From a virus (taxonomy: Duplodnaviria > Caudoviricetes): 64,000 bases of DNA. The position numbers and the translations under genes are program-made. Below, piece by piece: positions 2,610-46,056 of the stretch; positions within the stretch are counted from its first letter, which is position 1, and the number at the start of each line of letters is the position of its first letter. The DNA is taken from positions 45,729 through 109,728 of IMG/VR virus record IMGVR_UViG_3300021255_000042, one strand, 5' to 3'. Below the pieces are notes generated by a model, which was given only the letters and a program-made list of their open reading frames with translations, searched no databases and was not told the DNA's origin.

Positions 2610-3116
2610 TTAGTCGTTTAATGAATTAAAAATCTTTGCTGCTTCATAAAAGAATTCCTCCAGGGTACCATTATTGACAATTATGGCCTTGTAGAAATCC
2701 CTTGGGAGGATTGTGCGCTTATTGTCACGTTCGATACGGTCTGCGCCAATAGCCGGATCGTACTCACGGTCAACGTAGATTGGAACGATGTCATACCGGT
2801 CGCCGAATTTCTCAATCATTTCGACCAGTGCATCCTCATCTATGATATAGGTGCAGACATCATATTCGTCAAGCTGGGAAAGAGCCACCCAGTAATGGAA
2901 ACCGCCAAAGAGTGCGTATGCCAACATCTTTTCACGTGCTGGTACGCAAACATCTTCATCGAACCAATGCTCACGGCCCTGTTCTTCACCGGCACGCATC
3001 GGCCTGGTGGTATGGGACACAAGCTGGGGAATGTCAAGTTCTTCTTCCAAGAAGCGGACGAGAGTTGATTTACCGCTTCCAGAAGGCCCCACGATTGCAT
3101 AAATCTTCGTTTTCAT
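2610..3116 (-). CDS. gmk: guanylate kinase-like protein
   Basis: GPSGSGKST P-loop and VSHTTRPMRAGE motif. Confidence 0.85.
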   Translation of the reverse strand: MKTKIYAIVGPSGSGKSTLVRFLEEELDIPQLVSHTTRPMRAGEEQGREHWFDEDVCVPAREKMLAYALFGGFHYWVALSQLDEYDVCTYIIDEDALVEMIEKFGDRYDIVPIYVDREYDPAIGADRIERDNKRTILPRDFYKAIIVNNGTLEEFFYEAAKIFNSLND

Positions 3117-5284
3117 AATACTTCCAATACACTTTTACGATAGAACTGTAAGTTATTCTTTCCCTGGTAGTCGCTGTATTTTACGGCGGCAGAGCAGACG
3201 ATCAATTTGTCTTTTGCTGCGAGAAGTTGCGGCCTGAGCTCGTTGTATTCCTCAGACCACACGATACACTCGCAGCTGTCATTGTTTTGCTGGAGGAGGA
3301 GTTTGCAGAACACCTTCTTGTCACCGGTACGTTTGTCTTCGTACTTCTTTTCCTCCACATCCACGACCGTGGCGCATATCGCCACCTTCTTGTCCTCCAT
3401 TTCTGACGGAACAATATCTCCCAGGGTAACGTATGTTGCCTTACCCTTAATGAGCGTCTTGGCCTCGGAATTGTCATAGATGCGCTTGTAGTCGATGGCA
3501 CCCATGCCAGACACGGCGATTTGCTGCTGCGACCACCAATAATGTTTTCCACGCATTTCTGACGGCACGTCCTTCTCGGTGATTTCGAATCCGAGACGGG
3601 CGGCAGCTTTTTCCAGGATTGCAAAACGCTCCACTACGGATTCTGCACGCTCAATCTTGTCGAAGCAACCGGCGAAGATGAGATTGCGGATATGCCTTGC
3701 ATTGACTGGGCATTTGGTAGCTTCCTCTTCATTGTCGGGGTCATCCCAGTATTCGTACTTCTTCAACTTGTACTTGAAGATACGGTCGATAAAGTTCTCT
3801 ATACTTGTAAATTCGCCGTTCTTGTTGCGCTCATTGATAATCCAGTCAACCGCCTTTGTGCCGAGCATCTTAATCCTGGAAAGAGACCAGAAGATAGAAT
3901 TGGTTTCGTAGTCAGTGTAGAAAATCTGGCCGCTTACATTGATGTCAGGAGCAACAACGTGTGCCTGACTGCAAGCGTCCATTTCGCCCATAAGAGACAC
4001 GATTTCCTTGTCATCGGCCCACTGGAGAGCAACAGTATAAAAAGCGGTCGGATAGGCCACCTTCAGGTATGCTCCTGCGTAGGCAGTTGCGGCGTATGCG
4101 GTGGCGTGTGACTTGTTGAAGCAGTAGGTACCGGCGGCCTCGATCTGCGCCCAAATCTTATCGCGGTCTTCTGCCGGGCAACCATTCTTGTCGGCACCGG
4201 CCATGAACTTGTCACGCATTGCCTGGATTTTCTCGGTCTTCTTCTTGGAGACGAACTTCACAAGCTTCACACCGTCACCAAGGCTGAATCCACCAATCTC
4301 ACGGGCAAGGCTCACAATCTGCTCCTGGTACACCACAACACCGTAAGTATTTTTCAAGGAATTGTACGTTCCCCAGAGATAAACCGGCGCGATAAGGCCG
4401 TTCTTACAATCCACGAACTCATCGATATTTCCCATCGTGGCCGGGCGATAGATTGCGTTGGCGGCGATAAGGTGCTCGATGCAGGTAGGCTTCAGGTCGA
4501 TAAGGAACTTCGTGATACCACGTGAGCCAAACTGGAAGACGTTCTGCGTGAATCCACGGCCAAGAATGTCGTAAACGCGAGGATCATCCATCGGGCCGGT
4601 TACAATCGATTCCAGGCTCACGTCTTCGTGGTAATGCTCTTTTACAAGGTCGAATACTTCGTGGAGCTTTGACAACTCCTTCGTGGCAAGGCAGTCGTTC
4701 TTAAGAAGGCCCAATTCATCGAGTTCATAGCCATCGTTTTCGCTCACCAGGAGGCCGTCAACTTTCTTGATGGGAACGAAATCGAAGCATTCAACATCCT
4801 CGCCGTCCATATAGTCTGGAGTAACCAGGAGGGCAGATGCGTGAACGGAGCCAGAACGAGGCTGGAACATCAGCGTGCGGATGGATTCGAATAGCTGCGG
4901 ATAGTCGTTGATGAACTTGGCAATTTTCTTCTCGGTTGCGGCCAGCTTGAAAATGCCTGTGAAATCGCACTTGTCATCGTCAAAAATGGCGGTGATATAG
5001 TTGACGATATTGACGGGAATCTTCATCGTTCTGGCCACATCCTTGATAACGGCTTTGACCTTCAGCGTGGTAAGAGTACCGGCTGAGAAAACGCGCTGCT
5101 TCCCATCGTGGTTGTAGCGTTCTTCAATATATGCCTTTACGTCCTGACGGCGGTCGCTTTGATAGTCCTGATCCACGTCCGGCAAGCTGCCACCGGGCCC
5201 TTGGAGATAGCCATCACCGACAAACGTATCTATTGTCTGCACAGGCGCGTTGCTATGAACGCGTTTTACACTCGTTACTTTCAT
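3113..5284 (-). CDS. dnaE: DNA polymerase III alpha, C-terminal half (palm/fingers/HhH/OB), with a 32-aa intein-C-like leader
   Basis: SLPDVDQDY catalytic aspartates, HASALL, GLLKNDCLA, YQEQI, CFNKSHATAY, APDINVS. Confidence 0.92.
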   Translation of the reverse strand: MKVTSVKRVHSNAPVQTIDTFVGDGYLQGPGGSLPDVDQDYQSDRRQDVKAYIEERYNHDGKQRVFSAGTLTTLKVKAVIKDVARTMKIPVNIVNYITAIFDDDKCDFTGIFKLAATEKKIAKFINDYPQLFESIRTLMFQPRSGSVHASALLVTPDYMDGEDVECFDFVPIKKVDGLLVSENDGYELDELGLLKNDCLATKELSKLHEVFDLVKEHYHEDVSLESIVTGPMDDPRVYDILGRGFTQNVFQFGSRGITKFLIDLKPTCIEHLIAANAIYRPATMGNIDEFVDCKNGLIAPVYLWGTYNSLKNTYGVVVYQEQIVSLAREIGGFSLGDGVKLVKFVSKKKTEKIQAMRDKFMAGADKNGCPAEDRDKIWAQIEAAGTYCFNKSHATAYAATAYAGAYLKVAYPTAFYTVALQWADDKEIVSLMGEMDACSQAHVVAPDINVSGQIFYTDYETNSIFWSLSRIKMLGTKAVDWIINERNKNGEFTSIENFIDRIFKYKLKKYEYWDDPDNEEEATKCPVNARHIRNLIFAGCFDKIERAESVVERFAILEKAAARLGFEITEKDVPSEMRGKHYWWSQQQIAVSGMGAIDYKRIYDNSEAKTLIKGKATYVTLGDIVPSEMEDKKVAICATVVDVEEKKYEDKRTGDKKVFCKLLLQQNNDSCECIVWSEEYNELRPQLLAAKDKLIVCSAAVKYSDYQGKNNLQFYRKSVLEVL

Positions 5285-6621
5285 ATTGACATCGTGTGAT
5301 AAGCGTGACGGTCAAAGATGTTATTGTTAGCCTTGTAAGCCTTCTCAAATGCGGTCAATTCGTAGTCTGGGAAGATCATCCGCTTCGTGATAAAGCTCTC
5401 GGATGCGATTCCTTCCAGCGTCCTACAACGGCTCAGGGCAACGTAAAGCTGTCCGGGACAGAACATACCCTTTGAGTGGATGACGATGTTGTCAAAAGTC
5501 AACCCCTGGCTCTTATGGATGGTAATTGCCCAGGCAAGTGCAAGCGGGAATTGTTCACACGTTCCCTTTACAACTCGCTCAATCTTCTTCACTGGCAAGC
5601 CATTCTCAACGGTATCTACGGCCTTGTACTCGCATTGCTCCCAGATGTACGGGCCGATTTCCACGAGGTAGCCGTTGTCAAGCTGGACGAGAATGCTCTT
5701 CTCACCAAGCTCTTCCACAACTCCGAGAGAGCCGTTATAGTAATGACCTTCCTTATCGTTGACAAGCGTCATTACACGGGCACCGACACGAAGGCTGAGG
5801 GTTGTGTCACAAGGCGCGTTGGCCTCTGGGAAGTCGCCCTTTATCTTGCAATCGTAATTGTGTGTCGGTATGCCAAGCAGTTCCCGGTTGATATTCGCAA
5901 CGTCCTGACGGTGGGAGCAGATATGAATGTGCTTGCTATCGAAATTGGTACTCAGTTCCTTGTTACGCAGCTCAGAAAGAATCTGCAAATCGTCAAACGT
6001 AAGTTGGTAGTTGCGGATATGGTTCAGGATCGTGATGAAGTTTTCATCGGTCTGCCTGAAGATATGGGTGAGCTCAATAACACGGAACCCCTTCTCACGG
6101 AACACTGATGCGTTGAAGAAATAAGGGCCACGATACATACTTTCGATGAACTCGCGCTCATCGGCCTTGACAACCGGCGGGAGCTGATGAAGGTCTCCGA
6201 ACATAACGAGCTGGATACCTCCAAACGGTTCTGCATTCTGCCGGTACATCCTCAGCTTTTTGTCGATGAAGTCCATCACATCGGCACGCACCATACTGAT
6301 TTCGTCTATGATAAGGACATCGATGCAGTTTGCCAGGTACTTCTTGTTGGCAAAGAACTTGGAATCCGATGCAGCCGTAGGCCCAAGCGGGCCGAACGGG
6401 ATATTGAGGAAGCTATGAAGCGTGATTCCACCGGCATTTACTGCGGCCACGCCGGTAGGTGCCGTGATGATGAATCGCTTATTGATGTTTTCAACAAGGT
6501 ATTTTAGAAAAGTGGTCTTACCCGTACCAGCCTTACCAGTGATATAGATGGATTCGTTGGTATTCTGAACGATTTCAAGGGCCGTGGCCATTTCATTCGT
6601 TATCGTGATGTTAGGTGTCAT
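5281..6621 (-). CDS. Pif1/RecD-like SF1B helicase
   Basis: TGKAGTGKT, APTGVAA, IIDEISM, GDLHQLPPV, AWAITIHKSQGLT, GQLYVALSR. Confidence 0.92.
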   Translation of the reverse strand: MTPNITITNEMATALEIVQNTNESIYITGKAGTGKTTFLKYLVENINKRFIITAPTGVAAVNAGGITLHSFLNIPFGPLGPTAASDSKFFANKKYLANCIDVLIIDEISMVRADVMDFIDKKLRMYRQNAEPFGGIQLVMFGDLHQLPPVVKADEREFIESMYRGPYFFNASVFREKGFRVIELTHIFRQTDENFITILNHIRNYQLTFDDLQILSELRNKELSTNFDSKHIHICSHRQDVANINRELLGIPTHNYDCKIKGDFPEANAPCDTTLSLRVGARVMTLVNDKEGHYYNGSLGVVEELGEKSILVQLDNGYLVEIGPYIWEQCEYKAVDTVENGLPVKKIERVVKGTCEQFPLALAWAITIHKSQGLTFDNIVIHSKGMFCPGQLYVALSRCRTLEGIASESFITKRMIFPDYELTAFEKAYKANNNIFDRHAYHTMSI

Positions 6622-8339
6622 AGCTCGTCAATTGTAAACAGTTCATCTTTGTTGTCGAAAAGGATGTCATCACCTTCCTCTATTTCATCTGCATAAATTG
6701 TTATCGGCTCTTCCTCGCCGTCCCTGCGGACATAAAGCTGTGCATCACGGTCGATCTTCAAGGTCTTGCCATTTCCCAGGGTGACTTCAACATAGTCGCT
6801 GGAATCGATGTCTTCACCGATTATTGTGGTACTGGAAGGATAGAGCCCGGCCCTTTCGGGAAGTAGGAACCGCTCGAAGATGAGGTCATAACGAAGCGGA
6901 TCAATGAGGGTGATGCCAAGGAGGTACAACAGCAACGAACCCGCCGCCGAGCCTCGTCCACACCCAACGAGAATGTTGTTTCTACGGCTCCAATTACAGG
7001 TGTCGTACTGAACGAGAAGATAGTCAACATTGTTGGTAGATTCTATTATGTACTTTTCATACTCCATCTGCTTGCGGTACTTCTCCTGGCTTTCAGCGTC
7101 CTTCGGAACAAGCCGGTCGAAACCTTCTTCAAGAAGCTGGATAAACATATTGTGCGTGGTGCCGTACTTCTCTGCCTCTTCCGGTGTCATGGTGTATTTC
7201 GGCATAAAGTTGCGGTCGTTCTCAAACCTGGCGGTGGCGTGTTCCGCAATGAAAACTGCGTTGGAAGCGCACTCTTCGAACAAGGCTTCAATATCCCAGG
7301 CTTCTTCATCAAAGAGCTGGGTGAATAATGCGTAATGTTCGTCAACATCCTTAAAGTATTGCTCATCGCTCTGCTCATGCGCCGCGCCGGAAGCAATCTT
7401 GTTTAGGATAATCTTGTTCTTCGAATCGGTCTTGTCAAGATAATAGGCATCGGTGAGAAGAACCGGATCAACCGCATAGTCGGCATTGTCGTAAACCTTG
7501 TCGAAATACAGCTTGGCCGCTTCCAGGACACGGATGTCAATGCGCTCAGCCTTGTACTCAGTCAGATCAACCTGGAAGAAGATGTCGTCATAGCTTTCCT
7601 TCAGCTCTCTGACGGCCTTAGGATTGGCGATAATCCACTCGGACGAATACTTATCCAGGACGATAAAATTGCCCTCTCCACGGCGTTTTAATTCATCAAA
7701 CGTAATGGTCTGGTCTTCGCTGTCAACCATAACGGCCTTTTGAATGCGGAGTAGGTTTCTCAGGCCCTTCTGGGTACTGACATAGACCTTTGCGCCAACC
7801 AAATCCTCTCCGTAGTGGAAAGAAAGCGAATATCCGAATACGAACTTTAGGCCCTCTTCATCACAGCATTTTTGGAGATTGTAGCAGGCAGCCATCGTGT
7901 TCCGGTCGCAGATTCCGATTGCCTTGTGGCCGAGGAACTTCGCCTTCTTCACCCACATCTCAGGCATAAAGCTTCCGTTTAGGAGTTCGAACGGCGTGTG
8001 TACGCCCAGGTTGACAATCTCAACATCGTTCTTGGCCGGTTCAACCCTGGTGCCGACATACTTCAGGATGTTCAGCGCGAAGCCTTTTCTAAGGTCGAAG
8101 TAATACCAGTTGTCACCGAACTTGAACGTGATGTAGTTGATGTCCTCTGCCATAAGAATCGCCGGTTCCTCCATACTGTTGAAGATTACCTCGTTGTCCT
8201 TATTGAGCCTGAAGATGGAGTTGAGTTCACTCATATCTTCATAGTACACCTTGCCAAGACCTGGAAGCTCGACAACCTCATTGTCAACGACAGTGTATTG
8301 TATTTTGTTGGCTTCAAGCCATTCAAGTAATTCGTTCAT
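6618..8339 (-). CDS. dnaE: DNA polymerase III alpha, N-terminal half (PHP domain), with an intein-N-like tail
   Basis: HTPFELLNG PHP motif, GCGRGSAAGSLLLYLLGIT, DPLRYDLIFERFLLPER. Confidence 0.92.
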   Translation of the reverse strand: MNELLEWLEANKIQYTVVDNEVVELPGLGKVYYEDMSELNSIFRLNKDNEVIFNSMEEPAILMAEDINYITFKFGDNWYYFDLRKGFALNILKYVGTRVEPAKNDVEIVNLGVHTPFELLNGSFMPEMWVKKAKFLGHKAIGICDRNTMAACYNLQKCCDEEGLKFVFGYSLSFHYGEDLVGAKVYVSTQKGLRNLLRIQKAVMVDSEDQTITFDELKRRGEGNFIVLDKYSSEWIIANPKAVRELKESYDDIFFQVDLTEYKAERIDIRVLEAAKLYFDKVYDNADYAVDPVLLTDAYYLDKTDSKNKIILNKIASGAAHEQSDEQYFKDVDEHYALFTQLFDEEAWDIEALFEECASNAVFIAEHATARFENDRNFMPKYTMTPEEAEKYGTTHNMFIQLLEEGFDRLVPKDAESQEKYRKQMEYEKYIIESTNNVDYLLVQYDTCNWSRRNNILVGCGRGSAAGSLLLYLLGITLIDPLRYDLIFERFLLPERAGLYPSSTTIIGEDIDSSDYVEVTLGNGKTLKIDRDAQLYVRRDGEEEPITIYADEIEEGDDILFDNKDELFTIDEL

Positions 8340-44925: not shown

Positions 44926-46056
44926 TTAGATATGGTTGCTTATCCACATTATGCCTTTGTTCCGTTCCTTACCATCGGTAAGCTGGGTGGTTTCTGATTT
45001 TCCGGTCTCAACCTCTTTCTTCTTCCTTTCCAGGAGAGACTTATACCAACCGGAAAGATCGGTGTTTGCAAGCGCATCGTTCAGTGCAACAATAGTGTCT
45101 GCCGTGATTTGAACGTTGTCGCTCGGCTCAACCGCCACGCAGGTAATGGTGTACGGCTGGATATTCTTGAAGGTCTGCGATTCAAGCTTGAAATCCTGGA
45201 TGATGATGTTGTCAACACCGAACTGCTTGAACAGAAGATGATTTACCTGAACCACTCCGTTGTACTGGCAAATCTTGATGAGCCGCTTCACATCGTCCTG
45301 CGGATAAACGCCTGGAAGGTTGGAATTAATGGCACCGCTTATGGAGAAGCAAATGTCACCACCGGACACCAGCTCTTTCCTCGTATAATCGCGGCCTTCA
45401 ACTTTGTTGAGGATCACGTTTTTGGATGTGGTCTGGGAAACCTGCGGGGTAACGTCATAGAAGAAAATCTGCTTCGATTTGACAGTCCTCTTCGTAGGCC
45501 CCTCCATATACGTTATATCCATAGGCTCCTTAACCTTGTAGCTAAGGATAAGGGCTTCAGGAACAAGTCTGCCGAAAGCGTCAAGAGCGTTCACCTGGTC
45601 GTTGCTATCCTCCAGCTTCAAAACACCGAGACCGCTGTCAACCTTCTCACCGGCATCTATGATTATTTGGCTATTAGCCGCCTGGTTCTCCAGAATGTTC
45701 TTGCGTCTCTCGCGGTCGGCCTTAATTTCAGCCTGCCGCGCCTCGTTCTGGGATTTGATTTCATCGATGGCTGTCCGAACGTTCTTGTGGCCAAGCCACC
45801 TGAAGGCTGCATTCACGTAACCGCTACCAATCTCCAGGGCGACATTTGCATAATGTTCTGCAAGCTGAAAGCCGATTCGCTTTGCGGTGTGAACAATCAC
45901 ATTCTCGTAGGCACGCTCACTCTTATAGTAAAGCATCCCATCGCGGTTCTGGAACCTCGCATAATATGTGTTGCTGGAGAGTATGTTCTGCGTTGCAGCA
46001 CCTACACTCCAGACAACGTGCTCCCAAGGAAGCAATTGACTTACCGGTATAGCCAT
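44926..46056 (-). CDS. tail tube initiator-like protein (DUF6046-like)
   Basis: KNVILNKVEGRDYTRKELVSGGD motif, located after the tape measure gene. Confidence 0.55.
   Translation of the reverse strand: MAIPVSQLLPWEHVVWSVGAATQNILSSNTYYARFQNRDGMLYYKSERAYENVIVHTAKRIGFQLAEHYANVALEIGSGYVNAAFRWLGHKNVRTAIDEIKSQNEARQAEIKADRERRKNILENQAANSQIIIDAGEKVDSGLGVLKLEDSNDQVNALDAFGRLVPEALILSYKVKEPMDITYMEGPTKRTVKSKQIFFYDVTPQVSQTTSKNVILNKVEGRDYTRKELVSGGDICFSISGAINSNLPGVYPQDDVKRLIKICQYNGVVQVNHLLFKQFGVDNIIIQDFKLESQTFKNIQPYTITCVAVEPSDNVQITADTIVALNDALANTDLSGWYKSLLERKKKEVETGKSETTQLTDGKERNKGIMWISNHI

Follow-up and report, generated by a model that had tools for sequence, protein, structure and literature searches.

In IMGVR_UViG_3300021255_000042, the record, about 110 kb long, of a 'Gratiaviridae'-type Bacteroides phage from the gut, the polymerase DnaE is encoded by two separate genes, and the facing ends of its two halves–a 77-residue tail on the N-terminal half (N-half) and a 32-residue head on the C-terminal half (C-half)–are well supported as derivatives of a split intein. 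This splice-dead remnant probably docks the two DnaE chains into a non-covalent polymerase. Our analysis covers a window of 64,000 nucleotides (positions 45,729 to 109,728 of the record), in which the locus is laid out as follows:

6618 to 8339, minus strand: DnaE N-half, 573 amino acids, comprising the N-terminal domain, PHP, the first third of the palm and then the tail
6852 to 6878, minus strand: end of the N-extein, FERFLLPER, with PER at the break point (6852 to 6854)
6621 to 6851, minus strand: tail, 77 amino acids, remnant of the split-intein N-fragment
5281 to 6621, minus strand: Pif1/Dda-like SF1B helicase, 446 amino acids, between the DnaE halves
5189 to 5284, minus strand: head, 32 amino acids, remnant of the split-intein C-fragment
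5171 to 5188, minus strand: SLPDVD, start of the C-extein, with the +1 Ser and two catalytic Asp residues, uninterrupted in this phage
3113 to 5284, minus strand: DnaE C-half, 723 amino acids, comprising the head, the remaining palm, fingers, HhH and OB domains
4109 to 4114, minus strand: Lys-Ser junction of the CFNKSH motif, empty in this phage

Across the two halves, all the domains of a family C polymerase are present (PF02811, PF07733, PF17657, PF14579 and a weak OB match), with PHP upstream of the break and the fingers, HhH and OB-like region downstream of it. The break lies inside PF07733, of which Pfam positions 3–99 are in the N-half and 93–260 in the C-half, and it cuts PHROG 405 at 440/441 (coverage 37–440 in the N-half and 441–1053 in the C-half). 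The open reading frames (ORFs), Pfam and PHROG all agree with the original prediction, made from the letters of the window, that a DnaE motif is broken exactly between PER and SLPDVD. They also agree that a full Pif1 helicase gene lies between the halves (PF05970, PIF1, E = 2e-30; phrog_325, Dda-like helicase, E = 9e-79 over residues 5–425), and at both junctions an ATGA overlaps the stop codon of one gene (N-half or helicase) with the start codon of the next (helicase or C-half). The helicase matches its family profile over its full length and has a P-loop. The split is not a chance event, because the same split with homologous tags is found in 675 protein clusters and in 80 IMG/VR loci, at 57–89% identity.

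The tail and head derive from a split intein

Single tails give only faint matches in Pfam (Intein_splicing, E = 0.084; Hint, E = 0.33). A profile built from 31 diverse tails and scored against 1.84 billion representative proteins matched 50 proteins at a cut-off of E = 0.001, among them DnaE N-halves and a few repeat-protein artefacts; multi-stretch matches to LapA, TPR and PepSY proteins were rejected as such. The other single-stretch matches are an intein N-fragment from ribonucleotide reductase (RNR; protein P0168, E = 2.8e-6), a piece related to it (P0175), and two PolA fragments (P0173 and P0176), the last three at E-values from 3e-4 to 8e-4. Each of these four proteins is matched in a single stretch at the extreme C-terminus of an N-extein, where Pfam places Intein_splicing or Hint_2. 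No unsplit DnaE carrying an insert was present among the 50 significant matches.

The closest active relative of the DnaE tags is one of the RNR inteins of loci L086 and L087, and these loci also yielded matching C-fragments. Both phage RNR genes (L086:1287-5496 and L087:1485-4968) are fractured into three by two different split inteins, with endonuclease genes between the pieces. We joined tail and head for each DnaE locus (55 distinct pairs) and compared the resulting profile with the joined split RNR intein of L086/L087 using hhalign. The two align colinearly in a single alignment with a probability of 96% and E = 2.5e-9, tag positions 4–108 matching positions 43–144 of the 149 in the intein. 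By itself the tail matches the joined RNR intein at E = 4.5e-8, and the head, which ranks fourth to fifth among 2185 ORFs, matches at P = 0.0012 and aligns exactly to residues 1–31 of the 36 in the C-fragment; as a control, a reversed head improves nothing. A profile search of the PDB with the tail gave eight weak matches, four of which are inteins aligned from block B through the ELKxGD strand.

The predicted structure of the tail points the same way. Its AlphaFold2 model has six strands and a mean predicted local distance difference test (pLDDT) score of 65, with 71–82 in the core. The Foldseek comparison with Hint domains that had been suggested with the original prediction gave Hint folds as the top five matches for this model, with individually weak scores: they superpose with a root-mean-square deviation of 1.6–2.1 over 42 columns but at E > 1, and no Foldseek match reached E ≤ 0.001. 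With VIA, 13 of 13 rows are inteins or Hedgehog proteins, i.e. Hint folds (Z = 2.4–3.7), and the model superposes on residues 52–101 of the Npu DnaE N-fragment. Residues 1–220 of the C-half, folded alone, gave a poor model (pLDDT 59) in which the head has no secondary structure, a weak hint that it may need a partner. Because all of the structural matches are Hint folds, and together with the sequence statistics, we regard the intein origin of the tags as settled.

The alternative, that the resemblance to inteins is due to chance or convergence and that the tags are generic beta-strand extensions left by the cutting of the gene, is the least credible of those we considered. It is favored by the faint Pfam scores of the single tail, and by a weak comparison with the inteins that sit at FNK|SH in this same gene, in which the tail reaches P = 0.004 and the head gives no match. 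Against it, the significant matches in the library-wide search are to real intein N-fragments, each at the C-terminus of its N-extein, the alignment of the joined profile is colinear, the structural neighbors are exclusively Hint folds, and the break coincides with the canonical split and endonuclease-insertion point of inteins.

Residues required for splicing have been lost

The sequences give good support to the view that no known splicing chemistry is left in the tags, so that the intein cannot splice. The matched N-fragments from RNR and PolA are of the working type, with Cys1 and a T-x-N-H motif, where the window's tail has Ala and D-R-D-A. Of the 144 distinct tails, 135 have Ala at position 1, and three apiece have Gly, Cys or Met there; the equivalent of block B reads DxxA in 125 and TxxH in none. 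The 53 distinct heads end in GG, SG, HG, NG, GA, RV or SS–that is, none ends in Asn–and in the window, where the ending is Gly-Gly, the sequence Gly-Pro-Gly-Gly replaces the last strand with its His-Asn. The absence of TxxH, and of His-Asn before the +1 Ser, which had been remarked on in this one phage, is therefore a property of the whole family.

The fold has also been shortened, by deletion of about 40 residues following tail position 1 and of about the last five residues of the C-fragment. What persists is the basic first strand and block-F region in the head, and, at the end of the tail, an acidic GDD strand followed by a conserved extension. The original prediction saw no recognizable block A, but position 1 itself is still there, occupied by Ala in this phage and by Cys in a distant branch (P0152, P0162 and L088). 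Its description of the tags as intein-like was correct as to their origin, but understated the head, in which the greater part of the C-fragment is retained. From their sequences, the heads ending in HG and the branch with Cys1 look like stages of decay. Because the DnaE element fails four defining tests of a functional split intein, it should not be classed as one.

It might be argued that the halves are still joined covalently, by some non-canonical route that uses the +1 Ser or another nucleophile. The +1 Ser is retained, position 1 is Cys in the distant branch, and inteins of class 2 and class 3 are known that have Ala as their first residue. However, all known splicing routes need a C-terminal Asn, Gln or Asp, which 0 of the 53 heads has (Gly-Gly, Ser-Gly and His-Gly are the usual endings); almost every tail has Ala in place of the block-B His; and the fold lacks its last strand and some 40 N-terminal residues. 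The +1 Ser of the C-half says little about intein function, because it is part of the DnaE motif and the same Ser occurs in that motif in unsplit relatives. We consider covalent joining very improbable.

Selection and charge suggest that the tags hold DnaE together

The tags are under purifying selection, as judged from the ratio of nonsynonymous to synonymous differences (pN/pS), which is 0.25 (tail) and 0.46 (head), compared with 0.12 and 0.15 for the flanking palm; with pS at about 0.8, synonymous sites are saturated. Between clades that share only about 30% identity, the tail shows the same degree of conservation as the body of the polymerase. Tail and head also differ in charge: the tail is acidic (mean charge –13 across the relatives and –16 in the window), and the first 16 residues of the head are basic (mean +3, minimum +1). 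The same polarity, an acidic N-fragment with a basic C-fragment, is common to working split inteins. The parts that have been kept include the two long antiparallel strands by which working split inteins capture each other. Because of this combination of purifying selection, opposite charges and retained interface strands, we infer that the tags dock, and they likely act as a clasp that holds the DnaE halves together.

The mechanism that we envisage is as follows. DnaE, the phage's only replicative polymerase, is made as two polypeptides cut just before the catalytic PDxD motif, where a split intein like those of 'fractured' phage genes once sat. Two pieces of that intein are left: the strongly acidic C-terminal two thirds of the N-fragment, and residues 1–31 of the C-fragment, with a basic first strand. 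In a first step these tail and head remnants would still associate; the association would then place PER beside SLPD; and the palm domain would thereby be completed with no peptide bond between its pieces, so that the polymerase consists of two chains. Through the ATGA overlaps, the three genes (N-half, helicase and C-half) would be coupled in translation.

Several points weigh against this proposal. The two pieces of the palm may assemble without help from tags; the homology of the head is weaker, with short matches and modest scores; the structural matches made by the tail model are weak when taken one by one; the tags in the Cellulophaga clade (52 and 17 residues) cannot form a full Hint-like fold; and part of the conservation of the tail, whose last 12 residues lie outside the intein homology, may serve another partner. 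These last 12–13 residues (6621-6659 in the window; FDN-KD-x-LFT-I-x-EL) are nearly invariant in the Bacteroides-phage clade and absent from the Cellulophaga clade, have a low-confidence predicted fold, and may bind another component of the replisome, for example the clamp or the helicase.

On one alternative view, the intein-derived tags would play no part in assembly: the split palm would associate by itself, and the tail would be kept for the sake of the helicase, the clamp or some other part of the replisome. We regard this as unlikely, although it is the most serious of the alternatives. It would account for the near-invariant end of the tail and for the viability of the Cellulophaga clade with far shorter tags, and enzymes split by endonucleases can assemble without any intein remnant, as T4 gp39/gp60 does (bioRxiv 10.1101/2022.08.31.505936). 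On the other hand, the minimal Cellulophaga tags retain exactly the parts that pair in split inteins, the opposite charges of tail and head hold family-wide, and the head is under purifying selection with no other obvious role. We favor docking by the tags.

Inteins are usually seen as selfish elements that either splice or are lost, since a dead one should be lethal where the gene is essential. An essential polymerase tolerates one here, apparently since the split form turns the remnant into a module that joins subunits; this suggests that an intein which is neither lost nor continues as a parasite can meet a third fate. If docking is true, the tags would be small natural heterodimerizing elements (77 + 32 amino acids, or 52 + 17 in the marine clade) already tuned to reassembling an enzyme that is cut at its active site.

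The same split in relatives, and the contents of the gap

The phage's DnaE groups with that of the 'Gratiaviridae', a family defined by Benler et al. 2021, whose paper connects its DnaE with that of Cellulophaga phage phiST but makes no mention of a split or of an intein (PMC8008677). Among marine phages, the Cbastvirus members phi13:1, phiST and Larrie have the same cut, with the halves adjacent and the minimal tags of 52 and 17 amino acids, in which the block-B hairpin, the GDD strand and the head's first strand are still present. L085 and L088, from branches farther away, have the split as well. Scans of viral and metagenome contigs for relatives of P0176 and P0152 found none, and a DNA pattern then gave one locus, L088. 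A survey for unsplit versions, proposed along with the original prediction, found them in Chryseobacterium phage MA9V-3 and Bacteroides phage DAC16, where PER continues into SLPD with no insert at this point. We also looked for a natural locus with tail and head in one reading frame and found none, the candidates L061, L078, L088 and the Cbastvirus records all being out of frame.

The gap between the halves varies in content. In most loci it contains the helicase alone, as in the window, which has no homing endonuclease gene there, and in L061, L078 and L088 it contains nothing. Between the helicase and the head there is an additional endonuclease in some loci, of the GIY-YIG+NUMOD1 type in L006 and L007 and of the NUMOD4+HNH_3 type in L020, L030 and L048. 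L084 has a GIY-YIG endonuclease without a helicase, and L083 has a Bro-N protein. The slot directly before the head is thus a recurrent landing place for homing endonucleases. It had been proposed that the helicase occupies the endonuclease slot, but this is incorrect: the helicase is a neighbor of the slot and not its occupant, because the endonucleases of the relatives lie between helicase and head, and some relatives have neither gene.

Three loci have an extra ORF between the N-half and the helicase. In L049 it encodes 124 amino acids (L049:7713-8087) and has no family match. In two others (L057:7716-7913 and L072:7704-7898) it encodes a Cys-rich product of 64–65 amino acids with a weak match to the beta chain of ferredoxin-thioredoxin reductase.

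A stop-codon insert and hairpin in some relatives

In 8 of the retrieved loci, and in 12 contigs overall, the ORF that begins with the head ends at SLP followed by a stop codon. The cause is an insert of 7, 8 or 12 nucleotides, starting with TAA, TAG or TGA, between the Pro codon and the codon for the first catalytic Asp. The regions concerned are:

L020:3772-3890
L027:9114-9230
L028:9031-9150
L030:9543-9660
L048:5931-6050
L052:9013-9130
L061:7755-7880
L083:8237-8355
and also in L089, L091, L092 and L094

All of the insert loci have a G+C-rich hairpin of 10 bp that ends on the first base of the Pro codon, with folding energies of –19 to –24 kcal/mol and compensatory changes in its arms between loci, whereas 45 other distinct heads, including some with the same peptide sequence, reach only –2 to –12 kcal/mol. 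No second DnaE is present in insert-carrying genomes of 95–100% completeness. The three loci with an HNH endonuclease all carry the insert. Re-initiation of translation beyond the stop codon was rejected for two loci: in L083 no start codon lies in frame ahead of the Asp codons, and in L061 the first Asp would be lost.

The insert and hairpin are probably a cassette for short programmed ribosomal bypassing or +1/+2 frameshifting that is linked to the HNH homing endonuclease. T4 gene 60/mobA likewise has a stop-led coding gap beside an endonuclease gene; in the relatives of the window's phage the gap lies about 35 codons into the downstream half. We put at about even the chances of the wider picture, in which hundreds of Bacteroidota phages have a domesticated split-intein clasp and, in sister phages, a mobile cassette of endonuclease, head, hairpin and insert yields active polymerase only by bypassing or frameshifting, which would make it a second system of the T4 gene 60 kind.

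Comparison with known split and fractured genes

Dassa et al. 2009 described fractured genes in which a split intein and a free-standing homing endonuclease gene lie between the halves, including three DnaE loci, and stressed the charged antiparallel strands of split inteins (PMC2677866). The phage locus resembles these genes in being cut at a conserved catalytic motif with intein fragments on the cut ends, in having its halves on one strand a gene apart, in the GIY-YIG or HNH genes that occupy the gap in its relatives, and in that the sequences nearest to its tail belong to split inteins of this type, on RNR and PolA. However, those inteins keep all five catalytic residues, whereas the phage tags keep none but the +1 Ser (PMC2677866). 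The phage tags also lack about 40 + 5 residues of the fold, and the gap in the window is filled by a helicase, with no endonuclease gene. The locus can be described as a fractured gene that has decayed.

The split DnaE inteins of cyanobacteria (Ssp, Npu) are similar in host protein, in the two-gene organization of DnaE and in having an acidic N-fragment and a basic C-fragment. They are inserted in the fingers, before CFNKSH, whereas the phage remnant is at the PDxD motif of the palm; and they trans-splice halves encoded at distant loci, which the phage remnant cannot do.

T4 topoisomerase gp39/gp60 is split by the mobA homing-endonuclease cassette, which carries a translational bypass of 50 nucleotides (bioRxiv 10.1101/2022.08.31.505936). 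It too is an essential replication enzyme cut by a mobile endonuclease, and its subunits associate non-covalently, as those of the phage DnaE probably do. It differs in having no intein remnants and in the size of the gap, which is 50 nucleotides compared with 7–12 in the relatives of the phage and none in the window.

Split inteins made splicing-dead by engineering serve as affinity or docking tags (PMC9033041). Like the phage tags they have Ala in place of Cys1 and have lost the terminal Asn, and the engineered fragments still associate. They are laboratory constructs, whereas the phage tags would be a natural version kept by selection. In full-text searches of the literature library used here, no natural split intein that does not splice was found to be described.

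Active-looking inteins at the CFNKSH site of relatives

The Lys-Ser junction of the CFNKSH motif in the C-half is uninterrupted in the window, as had been read from the sequence. Known insertion points of inteins in Pol III alpha cluster in the fingers and the PHP domain (PMC4760082). In several relatives this junction is filled by an active-looking intein, with Cys1, T-x-N-H, a terminal Asn and a +1 Ser:

L005:9258-10100
L009:10190-11035
L010
L064:8932-9765
L070:10841-11392
L084:4261-4791

The inteins at this site include mini-inteins as well as others with an HNH endonuclease domain in frame. In L063, a frameshift lies just upstream of the intein.

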